Positions 21,625-63,831 of a stretch of 64,000 nucleotides of DNA are shown here, one piece after another (the stretch's first letter is position 1; each line of letters begins with the position of its first letter). The position numbers were made by a program, and so were the translations under genes. The notes beneath the pieces are model-generated. The model was not told the DNA's origin. It made no database searches and worked only from the letters and a program-made list of their open reading frames with translations. The stretch is from Thermoplasmata archaeon (lineage in GTDB: Archaea > Thermoplasmatota > Thermoplasmata > Lutacidiplasmatales > UBA184), in the NCBI GenBank assembly GCA_022749935.1, contig JAKIWQ010000004.1:2286-66285 (forward strand), written 5' to 3'.

Positions 21625-23829
21625 TCAGAGGAGCTTAAGCGCTCGTGCCACGCGCTCGGCGGAGAGCGGCAACTCGGTCGCGTGCGCGCCGCACGCTTCC
21701 CGAACGGCGATCGCCACGGTCGCAGGGACGGGTACGATCGGCGGCTCCCCGAGCCCCTTGGCGCCGAAGGGACCCGCACCGGCAAACCCCTCTAGGAACT
21801 CGACCGTCATGGGTGGGATCTCGCCGAGCGTCGGGATCCGGTAGTCGAGCAGCCCGGCGTTCTCGAGTCGCCCGTCCTCGGACCAGATCGCCTCTTCGGT
21901 GAGCGCCGCACCGAGTCCCATCGCGACCCCACCCTCGACCTGAGCCTGGGCCGCCCCCGGGTCGACCACGACCCCCGCATCATGGAACGCAGCGTACCGC
22001 TCGACGCGCACCGCTCCGGTGGCGGGGTCGACCGAGACTTCGGCCACGTGGGCCCCTCCCGTGAAATCCGTATAGGCATAGAACGAGCCCTGGAGCACCC
22101 GACTTTCGTCGATTGCCCGGGGCGAGGCGAAGTGGCGACCCTCGGCGAGGATCCCGCCGGCAGTTCGTTCTTCGGCGGTCACGAGGGACCCGACCGAGGC
22201 CCGGTGCCCCCCGGCCTCCGCGAAGATCTCCCCGCGATCGACCGAAAGGTCGGCCTGCCCGCGCGCCCCGAGCCGCTCGGCGAGCGTACGTCGCAAGGCC
22301 ACCGCCGCTTCCTCGACCGCGTGCCCGAGGGCCCCGAGGGTCCGGCTGCCGAACACCCCCGAGTCGAACGGCGCCTTCGAGGTGTCGGAGTACTCGATCG
22401 CGACCCGCTCCCGGGGCAACCCGGTCACGCGGCACGCCACCGCGGTCAGGCCACCGAGGACGCTCCCACTCCCGATCTCTCGCGATCCCTCATGGACGAC
22501 CAGTCGGTCTCCCGACAACCGGAGTCGGACCTCACCGCCGGCACCCGTGCTCGTCGACCAGAACCCGCACGCCACGCCCACCCCGTGGCCGGGAGGGGAC
22601 TCGGCCCGCCACGCACGGGCGGTGGCCCGGGCCCGCTCGAACGCAGCGAAGATGCCGAACGGCCCGACCGGCTGTCCCAGGGGGGTCGTATCCCCCTCGC
22701 GCCAGAGGTGACTGGCGCGAAACTCCTCGGGATCGAGGTTCAGCTCGCGCGCGACGTGGTCGAGGTGCGACTCGACGGCGAACGCGCACTGGGGAGCGAA
22801 CGGGGCCCGGTGCGGTCCGAACGGCGGCTTGTGGGTCCGAACGGCGTACCCCTCAACCTCGAACGCCTCGGTCCGATACGGCCCGAGCAAGAATCCGATG
22901 GAGTACCCCGTAGCGAAATCCCGTCCCGGCAGCGAGGTCCCGACGTCGAGCAGCAGGCGCACGCGGCGCGCCCGGATCCGACCGTCCTTGACCGCGGTCT
23001 CCATCCGAATGACGGCCGGCAGCGTGGTCCGGCCCAGGCGGAACTCGTCCCGGTACCCCAACGCGAGCCGGACCGGCCGCCCCGTCGCGCGGGCGAGGAG
23101 GAGCGCGTACGGCTCGAGGAACGAACTCCCCTTCCCGCCGAACCCGCCCCCGACCCAGGTTCCGTCGACCACGATGGACGTCTCCGGGATCCCGAGGAGC
23201 GACGCGGTGTCCTCCCGAACGCCGAAGGGGCTCTGGGTGGAGGTTCGAACGTACCAGACGTCCCCACGGATCTCCGCGACGCAGGCGTGCGGTTCGAGCG
23301 CCACCTGGTGGACGCTCGCCGTACGGTAGGTCTCCCGCACGACGCGATCGGCGCCGCGGAACTCGGCCTCGACGTCCCCGTGGCGCGCCCGCACGTGGGC
23401 CGCGATCTCGGGGGCGGCGTCGGCCTCGGACCCGGGCCACTCCGGGAACCGGGTCTCGAGGTCGGCGACGATGGGGAGCGGGTCCACCTCGACGCGCACG
23501 AGCGCGACGGCGGCCCTCGCCTCGGCCTCGGAAGGCGCGGCGACCGCCGCGATCGGCTGGTTTCGGTAAACGATCTCCTCGTGCGGAAAGAGGGGACGCT
23601 CCGCATCTCTCTCCCCGGGCCCGAGGAGTCGCGCGAGGTCGTCCGCGCCGATCACCGTGACACCGGGAAGCGCCCGCGCAGCCCGCAGGTCGACCGAAAC
23701 GATCCTTCCGTGGGCGATCGGGGCCGGGACGAGGGCGGCCCAGAGCATTCCGGGGACATCGAGGTCCATCCCGTAGACGGCCGTCCCGGCGAGCTTGACA
23801 ACGGCGTCCGGCCGTACCGCGCCGCTCAC
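21625..23829 (-). CDS. Molybdopterin-binding large subunit of a xanthine dehydrogenase/CO dehydrogenase-family molybdenum hydroxylase
   Basis: GGGFGGKG motif. N-terminal Ald_Xan_dh region VKLAGTAVYGMDLDVPGMLWAALV. The GTG start overlaps the small-subunit stop (GTGA). No CODH-specific active-site loop was seen. Confidence 0.85.
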   Translation of the reverse strand: MSGAVRPDAVVKLAGTAVYGMDLDVPGMLWAALVPAPIAHGRIVSVDLRAARALPGVTVIGADDLARLLGPGERDAERPLFPHEEIVYRNQPIAAVAAPSEAEARAAVALVRVEVDPLPIVADLETRFPEWPGSEADAAPEIAAHVRARHGDVEAEFRGADRVVRETYRTASVHQVALEPHACVAEIRGDVWYVRTSTQSPFGVREDTASLLGIPETSIVVDGTWVGGGFGGKGSSFLEPYALLLARATGRPVRLALGYRDEFRLGRTTLPAVIRMETAVKDGRIRARRVRLLLDVGTSLPGRDFATGYSIGFLLGPYRTEAFEVEGYAVRTHKPPFGPHRAPFAPQCAFAVESHLDHVARELNLDPEEFRASHLWREGDTTPLGQPVGPFGIFAAFERARATARAWRAESPPGHGVGVACGFWSTSTGAGGEVRLRLSGDRLVVHEGSREIGSGSVLGGLTAVACRVTGLPRERVAIEYSDTSKAPFDSGVFGSRTLGALGHAVEEAAVALRRTLAERLGARGQADLSVDRGEIFAEAGGHRASVGSLVTAEERTAGGILAEGRHFASPRAIDESRVLQGSFYAYTDFTGGAHVAEVSVDPATGAVRVERYAAFHDAGVVVDPGAAQAQVEGGVAMGLGAALTEEAIWSEDGRLENAGLLDYRIPTLGEIPPMTVEFLEGFAGAGPFGAKGLGEPPIVPVPATVAIAVREACGAHATELPLSAERVARALKLL

Positions 23830-24302
23830 GGCCCCTCGGTTCGCAATTCGTCCACCGCTCGCACGATGGCCGCGTACCCGGTGCATCGGCACAGGTTTCC
23901 ACCGAGTCCATCGAGCAATTCCTCTCGAGCGGCCGCGGTGCCTCGTTCCTTCAAGAGTCCGGCGAGCGCCATCACGAACCCCGGGGTGCAGTACCCACAC
24001 TGGAGCGCACCGGCCCGGTCGAACGCGGCGCGCACCCGGGTCACCACGAGATCCTCGGGACCCGTCTCGATGGTCGTGAGCTTCGCTCCGTCGACCTCGT
24101 GGGTCAGGGTGAGGCACGACAGGGTCGTCCGATCGTCGACGAGGACCGTACACGCCCCACAGTCACCGGTCCGGCACCCTTCCTTCGTTCCCTTGAGGCC
24201 GAGCCGCCAACGCAAGGTGTCGAGGAGTCGCTCCGAGTCGGGGACATTGGCGAGGTGCTGGGGGTGCCCGTTCACCTGGAACCGGAGCGGAGGAGACGTC
24301 AT
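23826..24302 (-). CDS. [2Fe-2S] iron-sulfur small subunit of molybdenum hydroxylase (CoxS/XdhC-like)
   Basis: Two 2Fe-2S motifs: CRTGDCGACTVLV and CGYCTPGFVMA...CRCTGY. The ATG at 24302 overlaps the FAD-subunit stop (ATGA). Confidence 0.88.
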   Translation of the reverse strand: MTSPPLRFQVNGHPQHLANVPDSERLLDTLRWRLGLKGTKEGCRTGDCGACTVLVDDRTTLSCLTLTHEVDGAKLTTIETGPEDLVVTRVRAAFDRAGALQCGYCTPGFVMALAGLLKERGTAAAREELLDGLGGNLCRCTGYAAIVRAVDELRTEGP

Positions 24303-25168
24303 GCCGGGAATCGCCCCCCGTTCACGGCCGAGCCGACGGCCCGCTCGAGGAGCGTGGCGACGAGGTGTCGACGATACTCTTCCGAGGCCCTCCGGTCGGT
24401 CACGAAGGCGGCCCGTGAGGCCGCGATCTCCGACGCGCGACGAACCTCGCTCGAGGTCGGTCGGCCGGATCCGAGCACGTCGCTGGCCTCGGGCAGGAGC
24501 GTCGGCCGCGGCGTGACGCCGCCCACGGCGACCTTCCACCGTCGCTGAGCGGGAGAGAAGGCCACGGCGACCGCGACCTGGGAGATGTCGTTGGAGGGCC
24601 GAACGCGTTGCCAAAGGAACGCCGAAGGGCGAGCCTCAGGGAGGTAGACCGAGCGCACGAGTTCGCCGGGACGGAGGTCGGTCCGGCGGGAAGCCTGTAC
24701 GAACCGGTCCACCGGGACCCGCCGGTCCCCACTGGGACCGACGAGGTCGACTTCGGCGTCGAGGGAGAGGAGGACCGGGACCAGGTCGGAGGCCGGCGCC
24801 GATCGAACGAGGTTCCCCCCGAGGGTCGCACGGTGACGCAGCGCGACGCTGCCGACCGCTCGCACCGCCTGGTAGAGGCCGGGGTACGAGACCCGCACCT
24901 GCGGGTCCTCCTCGAGGGAGCGGAGCGGCAGGGTGCTCCCCACGGTGAGCGCACCCGCATTCCAATCCAGGGTCTTCCACGGCAGGCGACGGAGCGAGAT
25001 GACCCGCCGAGGGGCGACGCGCCCTTCGTCGACGTCGATCAGGAGGTCCGTGCCCCCGGCGATCGGAGCCGCCTCTCCCGGTGCGAGCGCCTGGAGGGCG
25101 GCGACGGCCTCCTCCGCCGTCTCTGGAACGACGAGCTCGAAGGAGTTCACGGTCGCCCATCTCGGCAC
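24299..25168 (-). CDS. FAD-binding medium subunit of molybdenum hydroxylase (CoxM/XdhB-like)
   Basis: The segment AGGTDLLIDV...LGGNL is FAD_binding_5-like. It is the first gene of the three-gene operon. Confidence 0.8.
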   Translation of the reverse strand: MPRWATVNSFELVVPETAEEAVAALQALAPGEAAPIAGGTDLLIDVDEGRVAPRRVISLRRLPWKTLDWNAGALTVGSTLPLRSLEEDPQVRVSYPGLYQAVRAVGSVALRHRATLGGNLVRSAPASDLVPVLLSLDAEVDLVGPSGDRRVPVDRFVQASRRTDLRPGELVRSVYLPEARPSAFLWQRVRPSNDISQVAVAVAFSPAQRRWKVAVGGVTPRPTLLPEASDVLGSGRPTSSEVRRASEIAASRAAFVTDRRASEEYRRHLVATLLERAVGSAVNGGRFPA

Positions 25169-25250
25169 GGCCGCTTATCGTTTCGCGCGTCGAACCCGGC
25201 GCCAAGCCCCGGCCTTATTATCCGATGAGTGGCTGGGGCACCCACCCGGC

Positions 25251-25757
25251 ATGCCATTCGAAATCGCATTACGTTACAGCACCCCGCTGACCCCGATCCA
25301 CGACTTGGACGAGGTCCTGCGAGAGTTCCTCCGGCTCGTGGGGTACCTCCCCGAAGGCGAGGAGGGGCGGGGGGCGGAGGGCCCCGTCGCCCAGAGCCTG
25401 GCCTACCGCCTCGTGCGAGAGTGCTTTCTGCGCGACCCGTCGCGCGCGTGGTATATCGAGGAGCTGACCGCGGTGCTCAGGACGTCCAAGCCGACCATCT
25501 ACCGGCACATCAACAAGCTAAAGGCGCTCGACCTCCTCGAAGAGGTCGGAGGCGTCGCCGATGGCAAGGGGAGGAAGGGGTACCGGCTCCGGTACGGCAA
25601 CCTCGCCCGCGCCTGGGATTTTACCGAGGCGAACGCCCAGAACGCGCTGCGTCGCTACCGAGAAACGGTGAATCACTTGCAGGGTCTGATCGAGACGAAG
25701 GCTGCCGAGACTCCCCCGCCGAAGATCGCCGTACGGGAACGGGGAGGCGGACGATGA
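25251..25757 (+). CDS. Winged-helix transcriptional regulator (putative), divergent from the Mo-hydroxylase operon
   Basis: HTH segment LTAVLRTSKPTIYRHINKLKALDLLEEV. A TATA-like ggccttattatcc sits ~28 nt upstream of the ATG. Confidence 0.55.
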   Translation: MPFEIALRYSTPLTPIHDLDEVLREFLRLVGYLPEGEEGRGAEGPVAQSLAYRLVRECFLRDPSRAWYIEELTAVLRTSKPTIYRHINKLKALDLLEEVGGVADGKGRKGYRLRYGNLARAWDFTEANAQNALRRYRETVNHLQGLIETKAAETPPPKIAVRERGGGR

Positions 25758-26056
25758 GCGACACCGGGACCGCGAAGAAACCGGCCATCGCGCTGACGCC
25801 GGGCTCCCACGTCCGGGTCCGCTCGGCGGGACCGGACGACCAGGCGATCGACTCGGTCGGCCGGTTCCGGGGCCTCGTCTCGATCGGCGGCGACAACACG
25901 CTCGCGATCGAGCTCGACGGCGGCGAGGGCGAGGAGAAGGGACGGATCCGTCTCGTCCCCGTCCCCGCGCTGCTCGCGGTGGACATCCTCGAAGCGGCCA
26001 AGCCCGAAGAGGAGAAGCGGAACGACTCGAGCCAGGCGGCCGCGTACTTCCGGTAG
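25754..26056 (+). CDS. Small hypothetical protein (100 aa), translationally coupled (ATGA) to the wHTH regulator
   Basis: Its ATG overlaps the stop of the preceding gene. Acidic C-terminus. No recognised motif. Confidence 0.4.
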   Translation: MSDTGTAKKPAIALTPGSHVRVRSAGPDDQAIDSVGRFRGLVSIGGDNTLAIELDGGEGEEKGRIRLVPVPALLAVDILEAAKPEEEKRNDSSQAAAYFR

Positions 26057-26066
26057 GGCGCCGGAG

Positions 26067-26167
26067 CGGGCTTGCTGGGAGTTTCGTCGCCGGGGTCGCC
26101 GGCGAATTCGAACCCAGGTCGTTGGCTTCGAAGGCCAACAGGATAGTCCAGACTACCCCACAAGCCC
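26067..26167 (-). tRNA. tRNA-Arg (anticodon TCG) with a putative ~26-nt non-canonical intron in the T-arm
   Basis: On the minus strand the sequence runs 5-prime GGGCTTG ... anticodon stem-loop TTGGC-CTTCGAA-GCCAA ... T-stem CTGGG, T-loop TTCGAAT, then a 26-nt insert TCGCCGGCGACCCCGGCGACGAAACT, then CCCAG-CAAGCCC-G. Acceptor pairing is perfect only if the insert is spliced out. The D-arm register is ambiguous by one nucleotide. Confidence 0.55.
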
Positions 26168-26223
26168 GCGGCCCGTCCACGGGAGGAGGGCTATTTGGAC
26201 GTTCCGCGGCGCGGCCCCGGCCG

Positions 26224-29200
26224 CTAGGGCTCGACGCTCATCGGCGAGGCGGAGGGGGGGAACTGGTCAAGGGTCCGCTGGGCGGCGGCACCGGGGAACA
26301 GCGTCGCGAGCGAGTCCGCGAGCACCTGGATCCGCTGGCGAACGTAGGGCGTGATCCCCTCGATCGAGCCGAGCCGCTGGGAGAGGGCGAGGTACTTTCG
26401 CACCGACCCTTCATACACAGTCGAGAGGAGTTCGCCATCACACCGTCCGCCGCCCGGCCGGAGCGCGACGCACCGGCTGGCGAGCGGCGGCCGGCGGTAC
26501 GAGGCGCCGCAGACCTTGCATCGAAATTTCTGCGTCGCGTAGCTCTTGAGATTTCCCATCAGGTCCGGCAGGAAGTGAGCGTTCAGGACGAGCGTGACCG
26601 CTTCCGCGACATCGACCGCCCGGATTTGGGCCGCGAGGAGGATCGAGCGCTCGACCATGTCGTTCATCGACCGGGCGTCCCGGTAGGCGGAGCGGACCGG
26701 GCCCCCCGCGATCCGGGTCGTGTCGTGCGTGAACCCGTACCCCGAGAGGGCGTGCTCGGTCCCGAGCCGGCCCGCGACCTGCTCGATCATCGCCTCGACC
26801 TCCTTGGCCGGTCGGCGGTCGGCCGCGGCCCGGTACAGGGCGAGCGGGTAGTGGTCCCCTACGTCGACGTGGTGGGCCTCCTTGTCGACCTCCGTCGCCT
26901 CGAGCCGGGTCGTGAGGACGAGCGGCTTGTCCATCAACGCGCCCCGGCTGTCCGGCAAGTACGACCGGGAAAAGTTGAGGAGGGCGTCCAGCAAGAGCGT
27001 GACCGAGTCCTCGTCCCCGTCACAGTTCCGCCGTTTCGCCGCGTGGAACACGGGGTGGGCGAAGCACGCCTCGGCGTTCGTGAACCCGATGATCCGTCCC
27101 GTGACCCCGCCCGAGGTATGCGGGGCGAGGGCGATCACGATCGCCCCGACGAGGTCCCCCGGACGGTTCGCCCGGTAGAACGGGTCGAGGTTGTAGAGCC
27201 GGAGGAGTTCGTCGTCGACGAACTGGGCGAGACGGGTCAGGTAGTCCCCGCACGTGCGGGCGACGACCAGGTCCTGCGGGAGGAGCTCGACCAACTGTTC
27301 CTCGTCGGTCAGCTCCTGGCCGAGCCAGTCGTGCGTGTACCCGAGCGCGCGCAGCGTCGGAACCGGAGTCCCGACCTCGCCCGGTCGGAAGTGGGTGAGT
27401 GGGAGGTCGGTGAGGTCGAACCGGGCCGTCCCGTCCTGGTAGACCGAGATCCCGTGGGACGCCCGGAGGATCCCCTTCTCGATGGGCTCGGGCACTTTCC
27501 CCGGCGAGGTGAGCCCCTTCACGCCCTTCACCACCGGCGTGTGCGCGATGTGGAGGCGGGCGACCGCATCGCTCCAGAGGCGGGCGATCGGGAGCGGCTC
27601 GCTGACGACCCGGCCGTCCGGCTCCGTGTGCGTCCCGCAGGTACACCGGTTCCAGACAGTGGTCCGCTGGCACGACGGACAGAGGCGGACCCCGAGGTCG
27701 ACCCGAACTCCGTCCCGCATCGTCTGACGGGCGGCCTCGGGGACCGACCGGGTCGAACCGCCGGCTGGCCCGACGGGGAACAGCGCGTGGACGTTGGGCT
27801 CCATCGTGCGCTGGTACGCTTTTTCGGGTCGTCCGACGCGTCCCCCGATCCGGGAGGGGGCCCGGCTCCCGACCGTGACGCCGGCGAGACGGCCTACGTA
27901 GACGAGCGGGTCCTCGTCGACCGGGTCGATGTCCCGCTGCCGGGACAGGAGGCCTTCCGACACCTCGAGACCGAGACCGCCCACGAGGGCGTCGCTCGGG
28001 TCCGGCTCCCCGCGCCATCGGTCGGGGCCGCAGGGACCCATCAGGAACCCGAGCCGGATCAGGACCTCTCTCCAGCCCGGATCGTGCGGAAGCTCGAGGG
28101 CTCCGTCGCTCCATCGGCCCGTCCTCTCGACGAACTCGGAGAGCGCCCGGATCTCGCCGGGGGAGAGGTCATGCCAGAAGAGGAGCCAACGGGGGTGCAG
28201 GGGAACTCGGAATGTTCGGGAGGTCCGGACCGCGTCCTCGTACGAGGTCGGCGCGATCGCGACCGGGTCGGCTCCGGCGGCCAGGAGTTCCTCGACGTGC
28301 CAATCGAGCGAGTACGCCCCCGGGGCGAGGGGCCGGTTGTTCTCGAGGAACTCCCCGTAGCTGACGAGGATCTCACCGAGGTCGATGATCCGGCGAACTC
28401 GGGGCAGGAGGTCCGTGGCCCGGGCGGCCTCATGCACCGCGGTCAGGGTCCCGTCGTCGAGTTCGACGATCGGTCCCTCGATCGTGTCGCAGACTCCCAT
28501 CGCCGTCGCCTTGCCGGGGTACTCGAGCTTGACCTGCGTCCCCACGGCGACGAAATGTTGGAGGATCACCATCGTGGCCGGGTTGAGCGCGCACGCGGCG
28601 AGACCGGTCGTGCGGGCGCGTCCGTAGACGAGCCGGAACCCGCCGGGATGGCTCGGATGGGCCAGGACCGGTCGGCCCCCCACCGAATCCTGAAGGTACT
28701 TCGGAGTCTGGGCGTCGTCGTCGTCTACGGCATGGTGGCCGAGTTGTTCGAGGAACTCCCAGCCGTCCAGCCCCAGTTTGTCGACGATCCGCCGGAGCTT
28801 CGCGGCCTTCTGACAGAGTCCCTCAGCGATGACCAGGCACGCACCCCCTCGGATCCCGTTGGTCGGCACTCGGGCCAGGTTGCGAAAGGCGCTGACCTCG
28901 GCGTCGCCCTCGGTGGACTCTCCGGAGATCGAAACGGGGACGTTCTCCACGACGAGGGCGATCTCCTCGGCCGTCGGCACGTACTGGAGGTGCTGGTGGT
29001 ACTTGTACAACGGGATCTCCTCCTTGTATCGCTCGACCTCCGTGCGGTCGGGGCGGAACCGGGCGAGCCCGAGGTCGCGGCGGACGATGTCGGCCAGGAG
29101 CACGCTCAGGGCCTGCGCCGTACCGCCCGCCGCCCGGATCGGTCCGGCGTAGTACAGCTCGATGTACTGCCCTCCCGGTCCGTCCCGAACGTGGACCTCA

Positions 29201-29556
29201 GCCAGGCCCTCGAGGGGGGCCACCAGAATCCCCTCGGTGAGAATCGCGAGGCCCACTCGGAGCGCTGCGTCGACCCGGTCGGCGACCGAGCCCCCACGGG
29301 ACGTGTCGTTCGCGAGTCGACGGGTGATCCGCACGGCGACCTCTTCTCGCGGGAGGGTGGCGCCTAGCGTGCGGATCTCCTCGGAGATACCTTCGATCCG
29401 GAGATGGGCGAGGAGTTTCTCCACCCGCATGGCCATGTCCTGGGCCCGCGGTATCTCGGGGTGGATCTCCGGGTCGAGCCCCTCGCTTCGGGCTCGCTCG
29501 GCGACCGTGTAGGCCCGGTCGACTTCGGACTCGATCGCCCGGAAGTAGGGCTCCAC
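26224..29556 (-). CDS. polC: DNA polymerase D (Pol II) large subunit DP2
   Basis: Zinc-finger motif CPSCQRTTVWNRCTCG...C and conserved DP2 blocks throughout ~1110 aa. GTG start at 29556 (VEPYFRAIE) with a TATA-like tttatcc ~25 nt upstream. No intein-sized insertion. Confidence 0.9.
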   Translation of the reverse strand: MEPYFRAIESEVDRAYTVAERARSEGLDPEIHPEIPRAQDMAMRVEKLLAHLRIEGISEEIRTLGATLPREEVAVRITRRLANDTSRGGSVADRVDAALRVGLAILTEGILVAPLEGLAEVHVRDGPGGQYIELYYAGPIRAAGGTAQALSVLLADIVRRDLGLARFRPDRTEVERYKEEIPLYKYHQHLQYVPTAEEIALVVENVPVSISGESTEGDAEVSAFRNLARVPTNGIRGGACLVIAEGLCQKAAKLRRIVDKLGLDGWEFLEQLGHHAVDDDDAQTPKYLQDSVGGRPVLAHPSHPGGFRLVYGRARTTGLAACALNPATMVILQHFVAVGTQVKLEYPGKATAMGVCDTIEGPIVELDDGTLTAVHEAARATDLLPRVRRIIDLGEILVSYGEFLENNRPLAPGAYSLDWHVEELLAAGADPVAIAPTSYEDAVRTSRTFRVPLHPRWLLFWHDLSPGEIRALSEFVERTGRWSDGALELPHDPGWREVLIRLGFLMGPCGPDRWRGEPDPSDALVGGLGLEVSEGLLSRQRDIDPVDEDPLVYVGRLAGVTVGSRAPSRIGGRVGRPEKAYQRTMEPNVHALFPVGPAGGSTRSVPEAARQTMRDGVRVDLGVRLCPSCQRTTVWNRCTCGTHTEPDGRVVSEPLPIARLWSDAVARLHIAHTPVVKGVKGLTSPGKVPEPIEKGILRASHGISVYQDGTARFDLTDLPLTHFRPGEVGTPVPTLRALGYTHDWLGQELTDEEQLVELLPQDLVVARTCGDYLTRLAQFVDDELLRLYNLDPFYRANRPGDLVGAIVIALAPHTSGGVTGRIIGFTNAEACFAHPVFHAAKRRNCDGDEDSVTLLLDALLNFSRSYLPDSRGALMDKPLVLTTRLEATEVDKEAHHVDVGDHYPLALYRAAADRRPAKEVEAMIEQVAGRLGTEHALSGYGFTHDTTRIAGGPVRSAYRDARSMNDMVERSILLAAQIRAVDVAEAVTLVLNAHFLPDLMGNLKSYATQKFRCKVCGASYRRPPLASRCVALRPGGGRCDGELLSTVYEGSVRKYLALSQRLGSIEGITPYVRQRIQVLADSLATLFPGAAAQRTLDQFPPSASPMSVEP

Positions 29557-29728
29557 GGGGCGCCCACACTCCGAGGGAGGATAAACCCGCCGCGAGAAAT
29601 CAGCCCCGGTGGTACGACGGTGACCCTGTTCGTCGGAAACGCGGGGCTCGACCCGGCCGACGGCCGAACATCGCCGTTCGCCTGGGAGGCCCTTTATCCG
29701 ACAGGAGTTCCCCCGTCGAGGTCGTCGG

Positions 29729-30283
29729 ATGGAACCGGCGGAATCGTACGGGCCGGCCACGTTTCGCCCCGCCGTGGTCTCGGACGCCGGCCGGCTCGCC
29801 GACATTCACATCCGGGTCCTGATGGTGACCTATCGGGGAATCGACCCGCAGGAGTGGCTCGATAGCCTACCCCAACAGCTGATCGAGCGGGAAACACGGT
29901 GGCGCGAACGCCTCTCCCAAGTTCCCGTGGACGTGGTCCACGTGGCGGAGGTGGCGCCCGCGGGCCTCGTCGGGTTCGCCGTCGGGGGTCCCGCTCGCCC
30001 TCCCAACTTGGGGTACGAAGGGGAGCTCATCTCCCTGTACCTCCTACCGGAGCACCAGCGACGCGGGATCGGACGGGAGCTCGTCCGACGTGTGGCCCGC
30101 TCCCTGATGGAACGAGGGTTGCGGGGGATGTTGGTGCGAGTCCTTACCGCGAATCCGGCCCGCCTCTTCTACGAGCGACTCGGGGGCCGCCCGGTCGGAG
30201 TGCAGACCGTCACCATCGGGGACCAGCCACTCGAGGAGACCGTGTACGCCTGGCGCGACCTCGACCTCTACTTCGCGCCGTAA
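29729..30283 (+). CDS. GNAT-family N-acetyltransferase
   Basis: Motif A, QRRGIGRELVRRV, is present. 184 aa. A TATA-like cctttatccg sits ~30 nt upstream. Confidence 0.72.
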   Translation: MEPAESYGPATFRPAVVSDAGRLADIHIRVLMVTYRGIDPQEWLDSLPQQLIERETRWRERLSQVPVDVVHVAEVAPAGLVGFAVGGPARPPNLGYEGELISLYLLPEHQRRGIGRELVRRVARSLMERGLRGMLVRVLTANPARLFYERLGGRPVGVQTVTIGDQPLEETVYAWRDLDLYFAP

Positions 30284-51178: not shown

Positions 51179-52066
51179 CTACTCGCCGGTGCCCCCCGAG
51201 AGGACCTCGGGGCCGTTCGGTCCGACCAACACCGTGTGTTCGGCTTGCGCCACCAACCCTCGCCCCCGTTCGACGAACACGGGGTAGGTCTGGAGCACGC
51301 GGCGGGCGCGCGTCAACGCGGCCCGTTCCTCCGGGCGCGCCACCCAACGGAGGGTGAACGGAAGGGTCCGGAAGCGGGCGAAGAGCCCGGAGAGGACCGG
51401 GTCGCGCCCGCCGGGGTCGGACCGGAATCGAACGATGTTTCCGAAAGGACCGTTCTCGATGAGGCCGACCCCGTTGGTCGCGAACGGTTCGATCGCGATC
51501 ACCTCGCCCTCCTCGAGCGTCGCACCGCTGACCCCCGGCACGTTCGGGACCGACTTCCCCGCGTGCAGGAGGTACCGCTCGATCGAGTGTCCGGTAAGAT
51601 TCTCCATCGGCTTCAGGCCGCGGGCCCGGATCGCCGACGCGATCGCCCGGCTGATCTCGTCGACCCGCACCCCGGGGCGCACCTGGGCGATCCCGGCCCG
51701 GAGTCCTTCCCGCGCCGCCCGAACCAGGTTCTCGTGCCGGTGGGTCCCCCCGACCTCGACCGTATCCGCGGTGTCCGCGATCGCTCCGTCCAGGTGCGCC
51801 CCCACGTCGACCTTGACGAGGTCCCCCGGGACGAACGTCACGGTGTCGTCCGGGTCCGGCGTGTAGTGGGCCGCTTCGTCGTTGCGGGACAGGTTCGCGG
51901 GAAAGGCGGGCTCCGCGCCCGCGGCCCGGATGAGGGCTTCCACGGCGTCGGCCACGTCGCGTCGGCGCGCGCCGGGGATCGTGAGGCGCAACCCGAGCTC
52001 CCGGCCCCGAGCGGCGATCCGGGCCGCCTCGCGCCACTGCTCGAGATGCTCGGGGTACCGGGCCAC
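51179..52066 (-). CDS. map: Methionine aminopeptidase, type 2 (archaeal)
   Basis: Metal ligands lie in the DLVKVDVGAH, DTADTV, HSIERY and EPF contexts. GTG start at 52066. Confidence 0.85.
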   Translation of the reverse strand: MARYPEHLEQWREAARIAARGRELGLRLTIPGARRRDVADAVEALIRAAGAEPAFPANLSRNDEAAHYTPDPDDTVTFVPGDLVKVDVGAHLDGAIADTADTVEVGGTHRHENLVRAAREGLRAGIAQVRPGVRVDEISRAIASAIRARGLKPMENLTGHSIERYLLHAGKSVPNVPGVSGATLEEGEVIAIEPFATNGVGLIENGPFGNIVRFRSDPGGRDPVLSGLFARFRTLPFTLRWVARPEERAALTRARRVLQTYPVFVERGRGLVAQAEHTVLVGPNGPEVLSGGTGE

Positions 52067-52067
52067 G

Positions 52068-52634
52068 TTACCTTCTCGGGACGAGGCGAGGTCGGTCCTG
52101 CGTAACGTCGACCAGAAGGGAGGGTCGGCCCGAGGGGGAAGGGCCGCCCGGAACGTACACCGCCACGCTCTCCCCGAACGTCCGTCGCGCTGCCCGAGCG
52201 GTTCGGCAGGGAGAGTACCCATGGAGGTTCGCGCTCGTGGCCGTGATGGGGCCCACCCGTCGGGCCAGTTCTCGAGCGATCGGGTGGTCGGGGACCCGGA
52301 GTCCGAGACGGCCCCGCGGCGGGAGGACCGAGGGCGGAAAGGTGCGACGCGCCCGGGTCGTCGGAACGACGAGCAGCGTGTACGGGCCCGGGAGATGGCG
52401 ACGCACCCACGCGCGCGACGCGGGGGCCAGCTCCGCCCAGGTCTCGAGCTCGTCCACGGAGCTGAGCGCGAGGGAGATCGGGGGGCCGCCCGGACGCCCT
52501 TTCACCTCTTCCAATCGCGCGACCGCCGCGGCGTCGGAACCGAGGGCCGCCATCCCGAGCAGGGTATCGGTCGGGTAGACGACGAGTTCGCCGCGCGCGA
52601 GGGCTCGCGCCGCGTCGGCGAGCGGGGACCCCAT
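52068..52634 (-). CDS. tsaC: L-threonylcarbamoyladenylate synthase (YrdC/TsaC-type)
   Basis: Motif LVVYPTDTLLGMAALG. 188 aa from ATG 52634, immediately downstream of ndk. Confidence 0.75.
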   Translation of the reverse strand: MGSPLADAARALARGELVVYPTDTLLGMAALGSDAAAVARLEEVKGRPGGPPISLALSSVDELETWAELAPASRAWVRRHLPGPYTLLVVPTTRARRTFPPSVLPPRGRLGLRVPDHPIARELARRVGPITATSANLHGYSPCRTARAARRTFGESVAVYVPGGPSPSGRPSLLVDVTQDRPRLVPRR

Positions 52635-52638
52635 CGAC

Positions 52639-53106
52639 CTAGGCGTACTCCTCGCCCACCCGGGAGTAGGCGAGATACTCGGTGGGTCCGAAGTAGAGCG
52701 CGAGCTCGCGGGCCGCCGACTCGGGCGAGTCGGAGGCGTGGACCAGGTTGGCCGTGATGCCGAGCGCCCAATCTCCCCGGATCGTCCCCGGAGCGGCCGA
52801 CTGCGGGTTGGTGGCTCCGACGAGCAACCGCACGACGGAGATCGCCGACCGGCCCTCGAGGGCCAGCGCCAGGACCGGGCCCGACGTGATATGCTGGATG
52901 AGCGAGGGGTAGAACGGCTTGCCCTCGTGCTCCGCGTAGTGCCGTTGCGCGAGCTCGGGAGCGAGCTGGACCGCCTTGGCGGCCACGATCTTGAGCCCCT
53001 TGTGTTCCAATCGCGAGACGATCCCGCCGACGAGTCCCCGACGTAGGCCGTCGGGCTTGACCAGGACCAGCGTGCGCTCGACGCTCCCTTCCGCCATCGG
53101 TCGCAC
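52639..53106 (-). CDS. ndk: Nucleoside diphosphate kinase
   Basis: The pattern ERTLVLVKPDG...NLVHASDS matches Ndk, including the active-site His. 155 aa. Confidence 0.92.
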   Translation of the reverse strand: MRPMAEGSVERTLVLVKPDGLRRGLVGGIVSRLEHKGLKIVAAKAVQLAPELAQRHYAEHEGKPFYPSLIQHITSGPVLALALEGRSAISVVRLLVGATNPQSAAPGTIRGDWALGITANLVHASDSPESAARELALYFGPTEYLAYSRVGEEYA

Positions 53107-62198: not shown

Positions 62199-63113
62199 AT
62201 GACTGCACCGACTCCGGCACGTAACGAGGACTCCGTGCACCATATCCGTTTCCGCGCGGGGAAACCGACCCGAAGCCCCCGGGGGAGTGCGCCCTCCGCG
62301 GGGACCGCGAACCCGGAGCGGAGGGGACGCCGCCCTGCGGGGCCACTACCGGTAGGCGTCCGGTCCCGCCGAGACAGCCCGCCTCCACGACCACGGGCTT
62401 TCGTAAGCGATCTCGATCGCACCCTCCTGCGTCCGGGGGGTCGACCTACGGAGTGGGCGAGGGCAGCGCTCCAGACGGCGCGAGCGATGGGCCTGCGAAC
62501 TATGTTGGTCTCCGGTCGTACCTATTCGGACCTCACCCGCCTCGCGCGTCCCTTCGGTGCGTGGGACGCGCTCGTAGCGGAGAACGGGGCGGTCGTCGAA
62601 GCGCCTTGCGGGTCGTCGCCACTGGTCCTCGGGAGCGGAGTGGGCGCCGCCGTGCGTCGTCGACTCCGGACCTACGCGGGCAAACGCCCGGAATTTGGAA
62701 GGGTGGTCGTCTCCTTCCCTCGACGGGAGCGCCGCTACTTCCTACAGGCCTTGCACGGGCTACCGGTCGATATCATCGCGAACGTCGACCGGCTGATGGT
62801 CCTCCCCCTCGGGGTGACGAAGCGGTCGGGCGTCCGTCTCGCATTGCGCCGTCTCGGGTTGGGGGGAGCGGGGTATGCGGCCATCGGAGACGCGTCGAAC
62901 GACCTCGAGCTCCTCGACGGCGCGTCACTCTCTGGCGCCGTAGCGAACGCGGAGTCGACCGTGCGGTCGACCGCCGATTATGTCTGTCGCGGGTCGTTCG
63001 ACCGCGGGGTCCTCGAGTTCGTCTCGGGCCCGTTGTGGGCGCGGGTCGGAGGCGGACCCCCGTGGCCCGGACTCACCGGCGGCCCGCTCGGACACGGTCG
63101 AGGACCTCGGTAA
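62199..63113 (+). CDS. HAD-superfamily hydrolase, subfamily IIB (Cof/sugar-phosphate phosphatase-like; possibly trehalose-6-P or mannosyl-3-phosphoglycerate phosphatase)
   Basis: Motif I FVSDLDRTLL. Motif III/IV AIGDASNDLELL. It is divergent from the GH15 gene. The start is uncertain: ATG 62199 or GTG 62235. Confidence 0.58.
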   Translation: MTAPTPARNEDSVHHIRFRAGKPTRSPRGSAPSAGTANPERRGRRPAGPLPVGVRSRRDSPPPRPRAFVSDLDRTLLRPGGRPTEWARAALQTARAMGLRTMLVSGRTYSDLTRLARPFGAWDALVAENGAVVEAPCGSSPLVLGSGVGAAVRRRLRTYAGKRPEFGRVVVSFPRRERRYFLQALHGLPVDIIANVDRLMVLPLGVTKRSGVRLALRRLGLGGAGYAAIGDASNDLELLDGASLSGAVANAESTVRSTADYVCRGSFDRGVLEFVSGPLWARVGGGPPWPGLTGGPLGHGRGPR

Positions 63114-63831
63114 GGCGCTTGTTCGTTTCGGCGGTGATCGCGTCCCGGTCCTCCGGCCGCCGGAGCATGAGCGTGAGGGTGAGGTCGGTGGACTGCGGGG
63201 AGCGCGCCTTGGTCGTGACGACGGGCGGGAACCGTGGGTCGAGACGTGCCCGGAGTTTCGAAAGGGTCTTCAGAAGGTCGCTCTCGAATGCCGGCAGGTC
63301 GATGTTGCCGCTGATCGAGACGGGAATGATGACCTCCTTCCACGCCTGAGGGGACGTGTTCACCACGACGTCATGGATCATGGACGCGTTCGGGACCGAA
63401 ACGAGCTGCTCCTTGTCGGAGAGCAGCACGGTCGTCATCGGGTTGATCTCGATGACCTTTCCCGAGTACCCTTTCACTTCGATCGTATCGCCGACCTTGA
63501 AGGGCGTGTAGATGTCGGAAAAGTACTTCGCCCCGTAGTTTCCGAGCGGGTCCCGGAGTGCGACGAGCGCCGTCACACCGAGGAGGGCGACCACCAACAA
63601 CAGGATGTCCGGACTCACGCCGAGCGCCTGGAGGGCGAGCGTCCCCCCAATCAGTCCGACCATGACGACTGCGAGGCGGCGGGCGGCCACCGCCATCTGG
63701 GGACTCCCTCCTCGAATCAGACGACCCACCAGCCATCCGACCAACCAGGCGAGGAGGACGGTCAGGGCGACGATCACGGCGACCGGCCAGTACGGTAGGA
63801 GGAGGTTCAGGAGCGATGCGAGTCCGATCAC
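63073..63831 (-). CDS. Small-conductance mechanosensitive channel (MscS family)
   Basis: Three N-terminal TM helices, then the conserved beta domain VGDTIEVKGYSGKVIEINPMTTVL. The GTG start at 63831 overlaps the stop of the upstream partial gene (GTGA). The longer ORF extends to 63894. Confidence 0.72.
   Translation of the reverse strand: MIGLASLLNLLLPYWPVAVIVALTVLLAWLVGWLVGRLIRGGSPQMAVAARRLAVVMVGLIGGTLALQALGVSPDILLLVVALLGVTALVALRDPLGNYGAKYFSDIYTPFKVGDTIEVKGYSGKVIEINPMTTVLLSDKEQLVSVPNASMIHDVVVNTSPQAWKEVIIPVSISGNIDLPAFESDLLKTLSKLRARLDPRFPPVVTTKARSPQSTDLTLTLMLRRPEDRDAITAETNKRLTEVLDRVRAGRR

Follow-up and report, generated by a model that had tools for sequence, protein, structure and literature searches.

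The splice signal of archaeal tRNA introns is the so-called bulge-helix-bulge (BHB), in which a 4-bp helix lies between two 3-nt bulges bearing the splice sites, and at the canonical site the central helix includes the first two bases of the anticodon (PMC4090602). Position 59/60, in the T-loop, counts among the non-canonical intron positions listed in the literature, and introns have been described there in ARMAN-2 (PMC3239211). Here we describe a 26-nt insert at the same position in a tRNA-Arg(UCG) gene on the minus strand of a 64,000-nt stretch of contig JAKIWQ010000004.1 of a Thermoplasmata archaeon (hereafter the window, whose coordinates are used throughout). We regard it as highly probable that this is a functional gene whose insert is spliced out as a BHB intron. 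A first-pass annotation had suggested that the gene is a tRNA-Arg(TCG) whose BHB intron sits at a non-canonical site, about 59/60; this is supported by the cloverleaf, the BHB fold and the comparison with orthologues.

The intron shares its insertion point in the T-loop with those of ARMAN-2, of which the one in tRNA-Pro(GGG) likewise has the strict hBHBh′ form (outer helix h, central helix H and intron helix h′, separated by the two bulges). ARMAN-2, however, is a member of DPANN and not of Thermoplasmatota, and has a special broad-specificity epsilon2 EndA as opposed to the alpha′2 type of cultured Thermoplasmatales (PMC5829648); the tRNA is here Arg-UCG, and there is a single intron, apparently fixed throughout a clade of order level. 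At the canonical position 37/38, usual in euryarchaea, introns have the same 4-bp helix and two 3-nt bulges, a similar length range (median 12-25 nt) and presumably the same EndA and RtcB, but here the T-stem takes the place of the anticodon stem as outer helix, and it is the T-loop instead of the anticodon that the central helix sequesters. The classic lineages with non-canonical introns carry many of them, often in the relaxed hBH or HBh′ form, and an (alpha-beta)2 EndA with a specific loop (PMC4090602, PMC4033280), whereas we see a single strict motif. The first-pass annotation had called such an intron characteristic of particular archaeal lineages; the Thermoplasmata host falls outside those classically associated with non-canonical introns (Crenarchaeota, Thaumarchaeota and Nanoarchaeota). 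For the same feature category, the tRNAscan-SE 2.0 survey lists 25 non-canonical introns in Euryarchaeota, including cases in the same class, Thermoplasmata, with 6 in 3 Methanomassiliicoccales genomes and 1 in 5 Thermoplasmatales genomes; these are counts without tRNA identity or position, and the uncultured high-GC clade studied here was outside the data set (Supplementary Table S7, PMC8450103). We found no paper on this intron or on tRNA introns in Lutacidiplasmatales, and none joining Methanomassiliicoccales, tRNA, intron and BHB. The intron type is already known; what is new is this clade-wide case, and no new mechanism is involved.

The gene covers 101 nt (26167..26067) and reads GGGCUUG UG GGGU AGUCUGGACUA UCCU G UUGGC CUUCGAA GCCAA C GAC CUGGG UUCGAA, followed by the intron UUCGCCGGCGACCCCGGCGACGAAAC and then by U CCCAG CAAGCCC G. 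Its parts, all on the minus strand, are as follows.

26107..26167, 5′ exon of 61 nt, tRNA positions 1-59 (sequence and ARAGORN)
26081..26106, intron UUCGCCGGCGACCCCGGCGACGAAAC, 26 nt, between tRNA positions 59 and 60 (BHB rule)
26067..26080, 3′ exon of 14 nt: U60, CCCAG, CAAGCCC and discriminator G73 (sequence and ARAGORN)
26167-26161 and 26074-26068, acceptor stem GGGCUUG/CAAGCCC, with discriminator G at 26067 (sequence)
26129..26131, anticodon UCG (Arg), reading CGA and CGG (ARAGORN)
26117-26113 and 26079-26075, T-stem CUGGG/CCCAG (sequence)

The 5′ exon thus holds one acceptor strand, the D-arm, a 6-bp anticodon stem that includes a 26:44 pair, the anticodon loop CUUCGAA, the T-stem strand CUGGG and the T-loop sequence UUCGAA; the 3′ exon encodes no CCA. 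The acceptor stem, the TCG anticodon and CTGGG with TTCGAAT are all present where the first-pass annotation had placed them, and it can be read directly from the sequence that the 3′ T-stem strand CCCAG comes only beyond the 26-nt insert. Once 26106..26081 is removed, ARAGORN draws a 75-nt tRNA-Arg(tcg) as a perfect cloverleaf, with stems of 7, 4, 6 and 5 bp and the T-loop UUCGAAU, such that the outcome which would have spoken against the proposal, the lack of a cloverleaf once the insert is removed, was not seen. The spliced junction reads ...GGGUUCGAA|UCCCAG..., and the sequence across it is GACCUGGGUUCGAAUCCCAGCAAGCCCG. In the D-arm register of ARAGORN, the core nucleotides U8, A14, G18G19 and G15:C48 are all present together with the T-loop, and A20, which we take to be an identity element for arginyl-tRNA synthetase, is kept. 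Charging with arginine is predicted. CGA makes up 24 of the 118 Arg codons of the adjacent gene for DP2, the large subunit of archaeal DNA polymerase D, and, these codons being in regular use, a tRNA with the UCG anticodon is needed. The locus is probably the single-copy tRNA-Arg(UCG) gene of its Thermoplasmata host.

Folding of the 101-nt precursor alone with RNAfold gave a complete hBHBh′ motif, in the minimum-free-energy structure as well as in the centroid, and RNAalifold on 18 species with 26-nt introns returned the same structure as consensus. Its elements, again on the minus strand, are as follows.

26075..26117, whole hBHBh′ splice motif
26117-26113 and 26079-26075, helix h, CUGGG/CCCAG, the 5-bp T-stem
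26112-26109 and 26086-26083, central helix H, UUCG/CGAA, 4 bp between T-loop U54-G57 and the intron
26108-26106, bulge 1, AAU
26082-26080, bulge 2, ACU
26105-26099 and 26093-26087, helix h′, UCGCCGG/CCGGCGA, 7 bp
26098-26094, loop of h′, CGACC

The two bulges are on opposite strands and in each case 3′ of the helix strand, as in the strict hBHBh′ form. The precursor is also unusually stable, at −51.4 kcal/mol against a shuffle mean of −34.4 (z = −4.8), none of 200 shuffles being as stable in RNAfold, and the combination of motif and cloverleaf, together with the recurrence of this architecture in other Thermoplasmata species, is far beyond chance. A failure to draw any BHB motif would have counted against the first-pass annotation, and both programs instead place a strict motif at the boundaries it had proposed. 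By the definition in PMC4090602, each bulge is cleaved behind its second nucleotide (AA|U and AC|U), which puts the intron between tRNA positions 59 and 60 and leaves exon ends that read ...U54 U55 C56 G57 A58 A59 | U60 C61.... While the site at about 59/60 stands, the exact insert given earlier, TCGCC...AAACT after position 60, does not, as the BHB rule moves it one base 5′; both drawings give an identical spliced RNA because a U flanks both junctions. Among the orthologues, those with A, G or C as the first intron base have the T-loop UUCGAAU only under the 59/60 assignment.

The unspliced gene is poorly seen by standard tools. On the raw window, ARAGORN makes a single tRNA call, a tRNA-Arg(tcg) at 26089-26168, and we considered whether this 80-nt sequence could be the true gene and the downstream CCCAG...CAAGCCC a coincidence. 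We give almost no credence to this reading, though it is the sole call that the program makes: the fold is poor (its 8-bp acceptor stem contains a C-C mismatch, its T-loop has 9 nt and its T-stem is weak), its 3′ end falls in the middle of the insert, and its 3′ half lies in a segment that differs in every species and whose fold is not conserved. The ARAGORN calls on orthologues range from 70 to 91 nt or are lacking altogether, while the alternative with the insert removed is perfect and conserved. The Rfam scan of the window gave no tRNA at the gathering threshold, and a permissive scan of the unspliced DNA scored RF00005 at 20.8 bits against a threshold of 29, with an alignment that mis-threads into the insert; a score below the threshold is the expected outcome because of the T-loop intron. 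Neither the permissive Rfam scan nor a scan for the T-loop motif found other tRNAs in the window. With the option -i, ARAGORN also reports a tRNA-Pro(ggg) at 51622-52664 (minus strand; 948-nt anticodon-loop intron) and a tRNA-Ser(cga) at 62879-63747 (minus strand; 774-nt anticodon-loop intron), which we dismiss, since neither of these two scans supports them, as very likely artefacts of the option in GC-rich DNA. A self-splicing group I or II intron needs a catalytic core of hundreds of nucleotides, the insert having only 26, and the Rfam scan gave no match to such introns in the window.

To place the gene in context, one genome per prokaryotic species was scanned with the pattern CTTCGAA-N11-14-GGTTCRAA-N8-38-YGAANN-TCC, that is, for a UCG anticodon loop and, after it, a T-loop that a BHB intron interrupts at 59/60. 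At least 119 loci were obtained, and the matches were spliced in silico and checked for a cloverleaf, after which 58 sequences were retained; the bacterial matches were ordinary tRNA-Arg genes or chance matches, not introns. At least 52 Thermoplasmata genomes besides the window have a tRNA-Arg(UCG) with a 59/60 intron, and the intron is 23-38 nt long in at least 51 other Thermoplasmata species and 41 nt in one low-GC contig. All introns differ among the 58 retained sequences, which have 24 distinct exon sequences, the exon sequence being near-invariant among orthologues. The tRNA gene is found immediately 3′ of the DP2 gene and/or convergent with a homologue of the open reading frame (ORF) 25229-26056 in 51 loci, with DP2 identities to that of the window of 59-91% and one outlier of 40% in the syntenic loci; this shared synteny makes the tRNA genes orthologous across a roughly order-level clade.

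The divergent introns nevertheless keep their pairing. The 18 species whose introns have 26 nt align without gaps; here, all 6 of the h′ pairs tested show double-sided changes, and 96.4% of the h′ cells are paired, dropping to 34-53% when the partner is slid by 1-3 columns; none of 500 column shuffles reaches the covariation score of the alignment. When the register is counted from the bulges in 53 sequences, each of the h′ pairs 1-6 is paired in 47-51 of them, and the chance of six contiguous pairs at a fixed h′ register, based on composition, is about 0.002 per sequence. A few species have a mismatch at the first h′ pair and still fold as hBHBh′. From these comparisons, the BHB geometry is under purifying selection and the intron hairpin appears constrained in structure only.

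These data bear directly on the idea of a tRNA pseudogene, a normal tRNA-Arg inactivated by a 26-nt GC-rich insertion that is never removed. Standard detectors do reject or mis-fold the unspliced gene, ARAGORN making no call in 24 of the 53 orthologous Thermoplasmata loci. We still find a pseudogene highly improbable, as the exons are near-invariant while the insert diverges and yet keeps its helix by compensatory changes, the insert always has the exact BHB geometry, and the position, synteny and promoter box are conserved across 51 species; moreover, CGA codons are in use and an exact-pattern scan found no intron-less copy in the JGI metagenomes. That scan, covering all JGI metagenome contigs and the sequence from anticodon loop to discriminator, gave one match to the intron-less form (contig L120, 4453-4527, minus strand; 64-67% GC), a tRNA-Arg(UCG) that agrees with ours in the anticodon loop, the T-arm and the 3′ half of the acceptor. 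Its D-arm differs (GGCUAGUUCGGAUAGACU), which places it outside the orthologue group; its neighbourhood was uninformative by Pfam. The clade is well represented in the JGI collection, with JGI sources among the DP2 relatives, and a close JGI relative reached through synteny (contig L121, 6404-6504, plus strand; DP2 88% identical) has the intron, with the H strand CGGA in place of CGAA. The central helix then contains a U55·G wobble, and variants of this sort would have escaped the scan pattern. As far as matching of exact patterns can show, the intron is apparently fixed in the clade.

We also asked whether the GC-rich hairpin could mainly be another signal, such as a terminator or protein site of the convergent gene that ends at 26056, with its stop 10 nt from the tRNA 3′ end, or the remnant of an attachment site, tRNA 3′ halves being classic integration targets (PMC4090602). 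This seems extremely unlikely: the sequence of the hairpin is not conserved, only its pairing and its register to the bulges are, and its flanks hold neither a duplicate of the tRNA 3′ half nor a gene for an integrase. A scan of IMG/VR for the spliced 3′ half or for the junction of intron and 3′ exon found no viral contig with the tRNA 3′ half, with or without the intron end, a result that is weak as negative evidence.

With the gene read as a spliced one, the T-stem of the precursor would stack on the 4-bp H, formed by U54-G57 and CGAA, and run on into the 7-bp intron hairpin. EndA would cut after the second nucleotide of each bulge, leaving a 2′,3′-cyclic phosphate and a 5′-OH, RtcB would ligate A59 to U60, and the intron would be released and possibly circularized; these enzymatic steps rest on established archaeal tRNA splicing (PMC4090602). 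Splicing would free U54-C56, which could then build the usual T-loop and contact the D-loop, and the 75-nt product would receive CCA post-transcriptionally. With U54, U55 and C56 locked in H, the precursor cannot form the T-loop or the G18-U55/G19-C56 elbow, and splicing should then precede T-loop modifications and the steps that read the elbow. The same pairing speaks to a further possibility, that the insert is retained in the mature RNA as an extra arm growing from the T-loop of an expanded, non-canonical tRNA. A hairpin that is stable and conserved as a structure would suit such an arm, which is compatible with sequence-only evidence, and yet we judge it very unlikely: U54-G57 would be paired with the insert, which would keep the T-loop from forming and from contacting G18/G19, and the insert length varies between 23 and 38 nt. 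We know of no precedent for an extra arm retained from a tRNA T-loop. Two 3-nt bulges exactly 4 bp apart are furthermore the recognition motif of EndA (PMC4090602) and would be pointless in an unspliced arm.

Several points weigh against a functional, spliced gene. Splicing is a prediction from sequence, and the invariance of YGAA, of the T-loop sequence and of TCC among the scan matches is partly by construction, as the pattern required them. A second, intron-less tRNA-Arg(UCG) may exist elsewhere in the genome. The presence and type of EndA and RtcB in the lineage are assumed: a tblastn search with the M. jannaschii EndA (PDB 1a79) gave no match in the window and 120 loci, RtcB not being searched for. 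Finally, reviews tie the euryarchaeal EndA (alpha4 or alpha′2) to introns at canonical positions only. This tie is a correlation, and the motif here is the strict form that such enzymes accept. Cultured Thermoplasmatales have an EndA of the alpha′2 type, which is considered limited to strict BHB motifs (PMC5829648); the structure of the T. acidophilum EndA is listed as PDB 2ohc. Judged by the sequences compared, the uniformly strict motif fits an EndA of this type. Retention of the intron may be neutral in a single-copy gene, or it may protect the T-arm and 3′ end against integrases.

The first-pass annotation had left the D-arm register ambiguous by one nucleotide, and our tools disagree in the same way. 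ARAGORN has the linker U8 G9, then the pairs G10·U25, G11-C24, G12-C23 and U13·U22 and an 11-nt D-loop, a register that retains U8, A14, G15:C48, G18G19, A20 and A21. RNAfold (8 bp) and RNAalifold (7 bp) favour a hairpin in the D-arm (26140-26160) that is offset by one base from this canonical register. The D-stem columns are nearly invariant among orthologues, and the comparison can therefore not choose between the registers; column 9 alone varies (G/A) and is unpaired in the canonical register, and U13·U22 is an invariant D-stem mismatch. For architectural reasons, we favour the canonical register. Positions 26 and 44 (26139 with 26121) covary in the 53 sequences, being G-C in 33, U-A in 18 and G·U in 2, which gives the anticodon stem its 6 bp.

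The scan, confined to the UCG anticodon loop, also extends the distribution beyond the clade. Introns at 59/60 of tRNA-Arg(UCG) are also found in at least three Micrarchaeota (28 and 43 nt; L016, L107 and L068), in a Marsarchaeota genome (38 nt; L063) and in a Thermoplasmata contig of 50% GC (41 nt; L054, 309-379). L068 has a perfect hBHBh′ motif, and L016 and L063 look more relaxed. The closest named relative of a protein next to the L054 tRNA is from 'Ca. Proteinoplasmatales SG8-5'; the tRNA is not syntenic in six related contigs, which are uninformative on the presence of the intron. The recurrence at 59/60 may have a structural reason. The universal T-stem and the sequence UUCG/UUCA-AA would supply h, one strand of H and most of bulge 1, and any hairpin ending in CGAANN that is added there would complete a BHB, which makes such an explanation plausible. 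A bolder scenario, which we put forward tentatively and think improbable as a whole, is that the T-loop intron is old and selectively kept in much of Thermoplasmatota, possibly shared with or re-gained by Micrarchaeota and Marsarchaeota, and processed by a strict EndA of the alpha′2 type. If so, non-canonical positions would need no broad-specificity endonuclease, and the intron would be functional, for example as a maturation checkpoint that delays the T-loop and elbow or as a disruption of an integrase attachment site.

Upstream of the gene, on the minus strand, lies a promoter-like element.

26191..26205, promoter-like sequence: GGAAC (26205-26201), resembling a transcription factor B recognition element (BRE), then CCAAATAG
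26196-26192, TATA-like AAATA, centred 27 nt upstream of tRNA position 1

The archaeal TATA box lies at about −26/−27. An A/T box (AAATA, TTATA, ATATA or TAATA) is found at the same distance in all 53 Thermoplasmata loci, usually with GGAAC before it and in flanks that are otherwise about 70% GC, and from its position we take the A/T box with GGAAC as a putative BRE/TATA promoter.

Directly upstream of the tRNA and on the same strand is the DP2 gene (26224-29805, minus strand), the product of which is 100% identical to a protein from 'MAG: Thermoplasmata archaeon' (P0001; MAG, metagenome-assembled genome) and shares 75-88% identity with over 100 relatives found in metagenomes of soil and sediment, AcS and SubAcS bins being among the MAG names. 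As DP2 is present together with FtsZ, encoded near the tRNA, and the best DP2 match is a Thermoplasmata MAG, the host is archaeal. The GC content of the window is 69.6%, and the Lutacidiplasmatales/TMEG order has about 69% GC and genomes of about 2.1 Mb (PMC9287336). Both the GC content and these MAG names fit that order, of which the host is probably a member. The longest DP2 ORF has 1193 aa, P0001 and the relatives about 1105-1120 aa covering 92-93% of it, and translation probably begins some 80 codons after the first ATG. The convergent ORF 25229-26056 (plus strand) is conserved in nearly all syntenic loci and has no Pfam match. In L121, gene callers split this region into frames of 101 aa and 168 aa, the latter with a weak match to HTH_20, and the 275-aa, GTG-started ORF may be over-extended. 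Inside it, 25747-25798 (plus strand) has a sub-threshold Rfam match to sR28, an archaeal C/D-box small RNA (27.5 bits versus 39, E = 0.0035), which is possibly a chance match. Farther on, the ORF 24299-25168 (minus strand) has FAD_binding_5 and CO_deh_flav_C domains and is part of 21625-25168 (minus strand); the same flavoprotein occurs in syntenic relatives, with Fer2_2 and MoCoBD subunits after it, and together these indicate that a gene cluster of the xanthine/CO-dehydrogenase family adjoins the tRNA.

For annotation, the finding means that tools without a search for non-canonical BHB introns miss or mis-call the only visible CGA-reading tRNA-Arg(UCG) gene of the clade, and this affects the tRNA complements and MAG quality scores of abundant uncultured Thermoplasmata of soil and peat. 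It adds a well-supported strict BHB intron at a T-loop position in a lineage of the euryarchaeal type, which reviews limit to 37/38, and bears on the model of a co-evolution between intron position and type of endonuclease. The 50-odd orthologues, no two of which share an intron sequence, form a natural covariation set for the evolution of the BHB motif.

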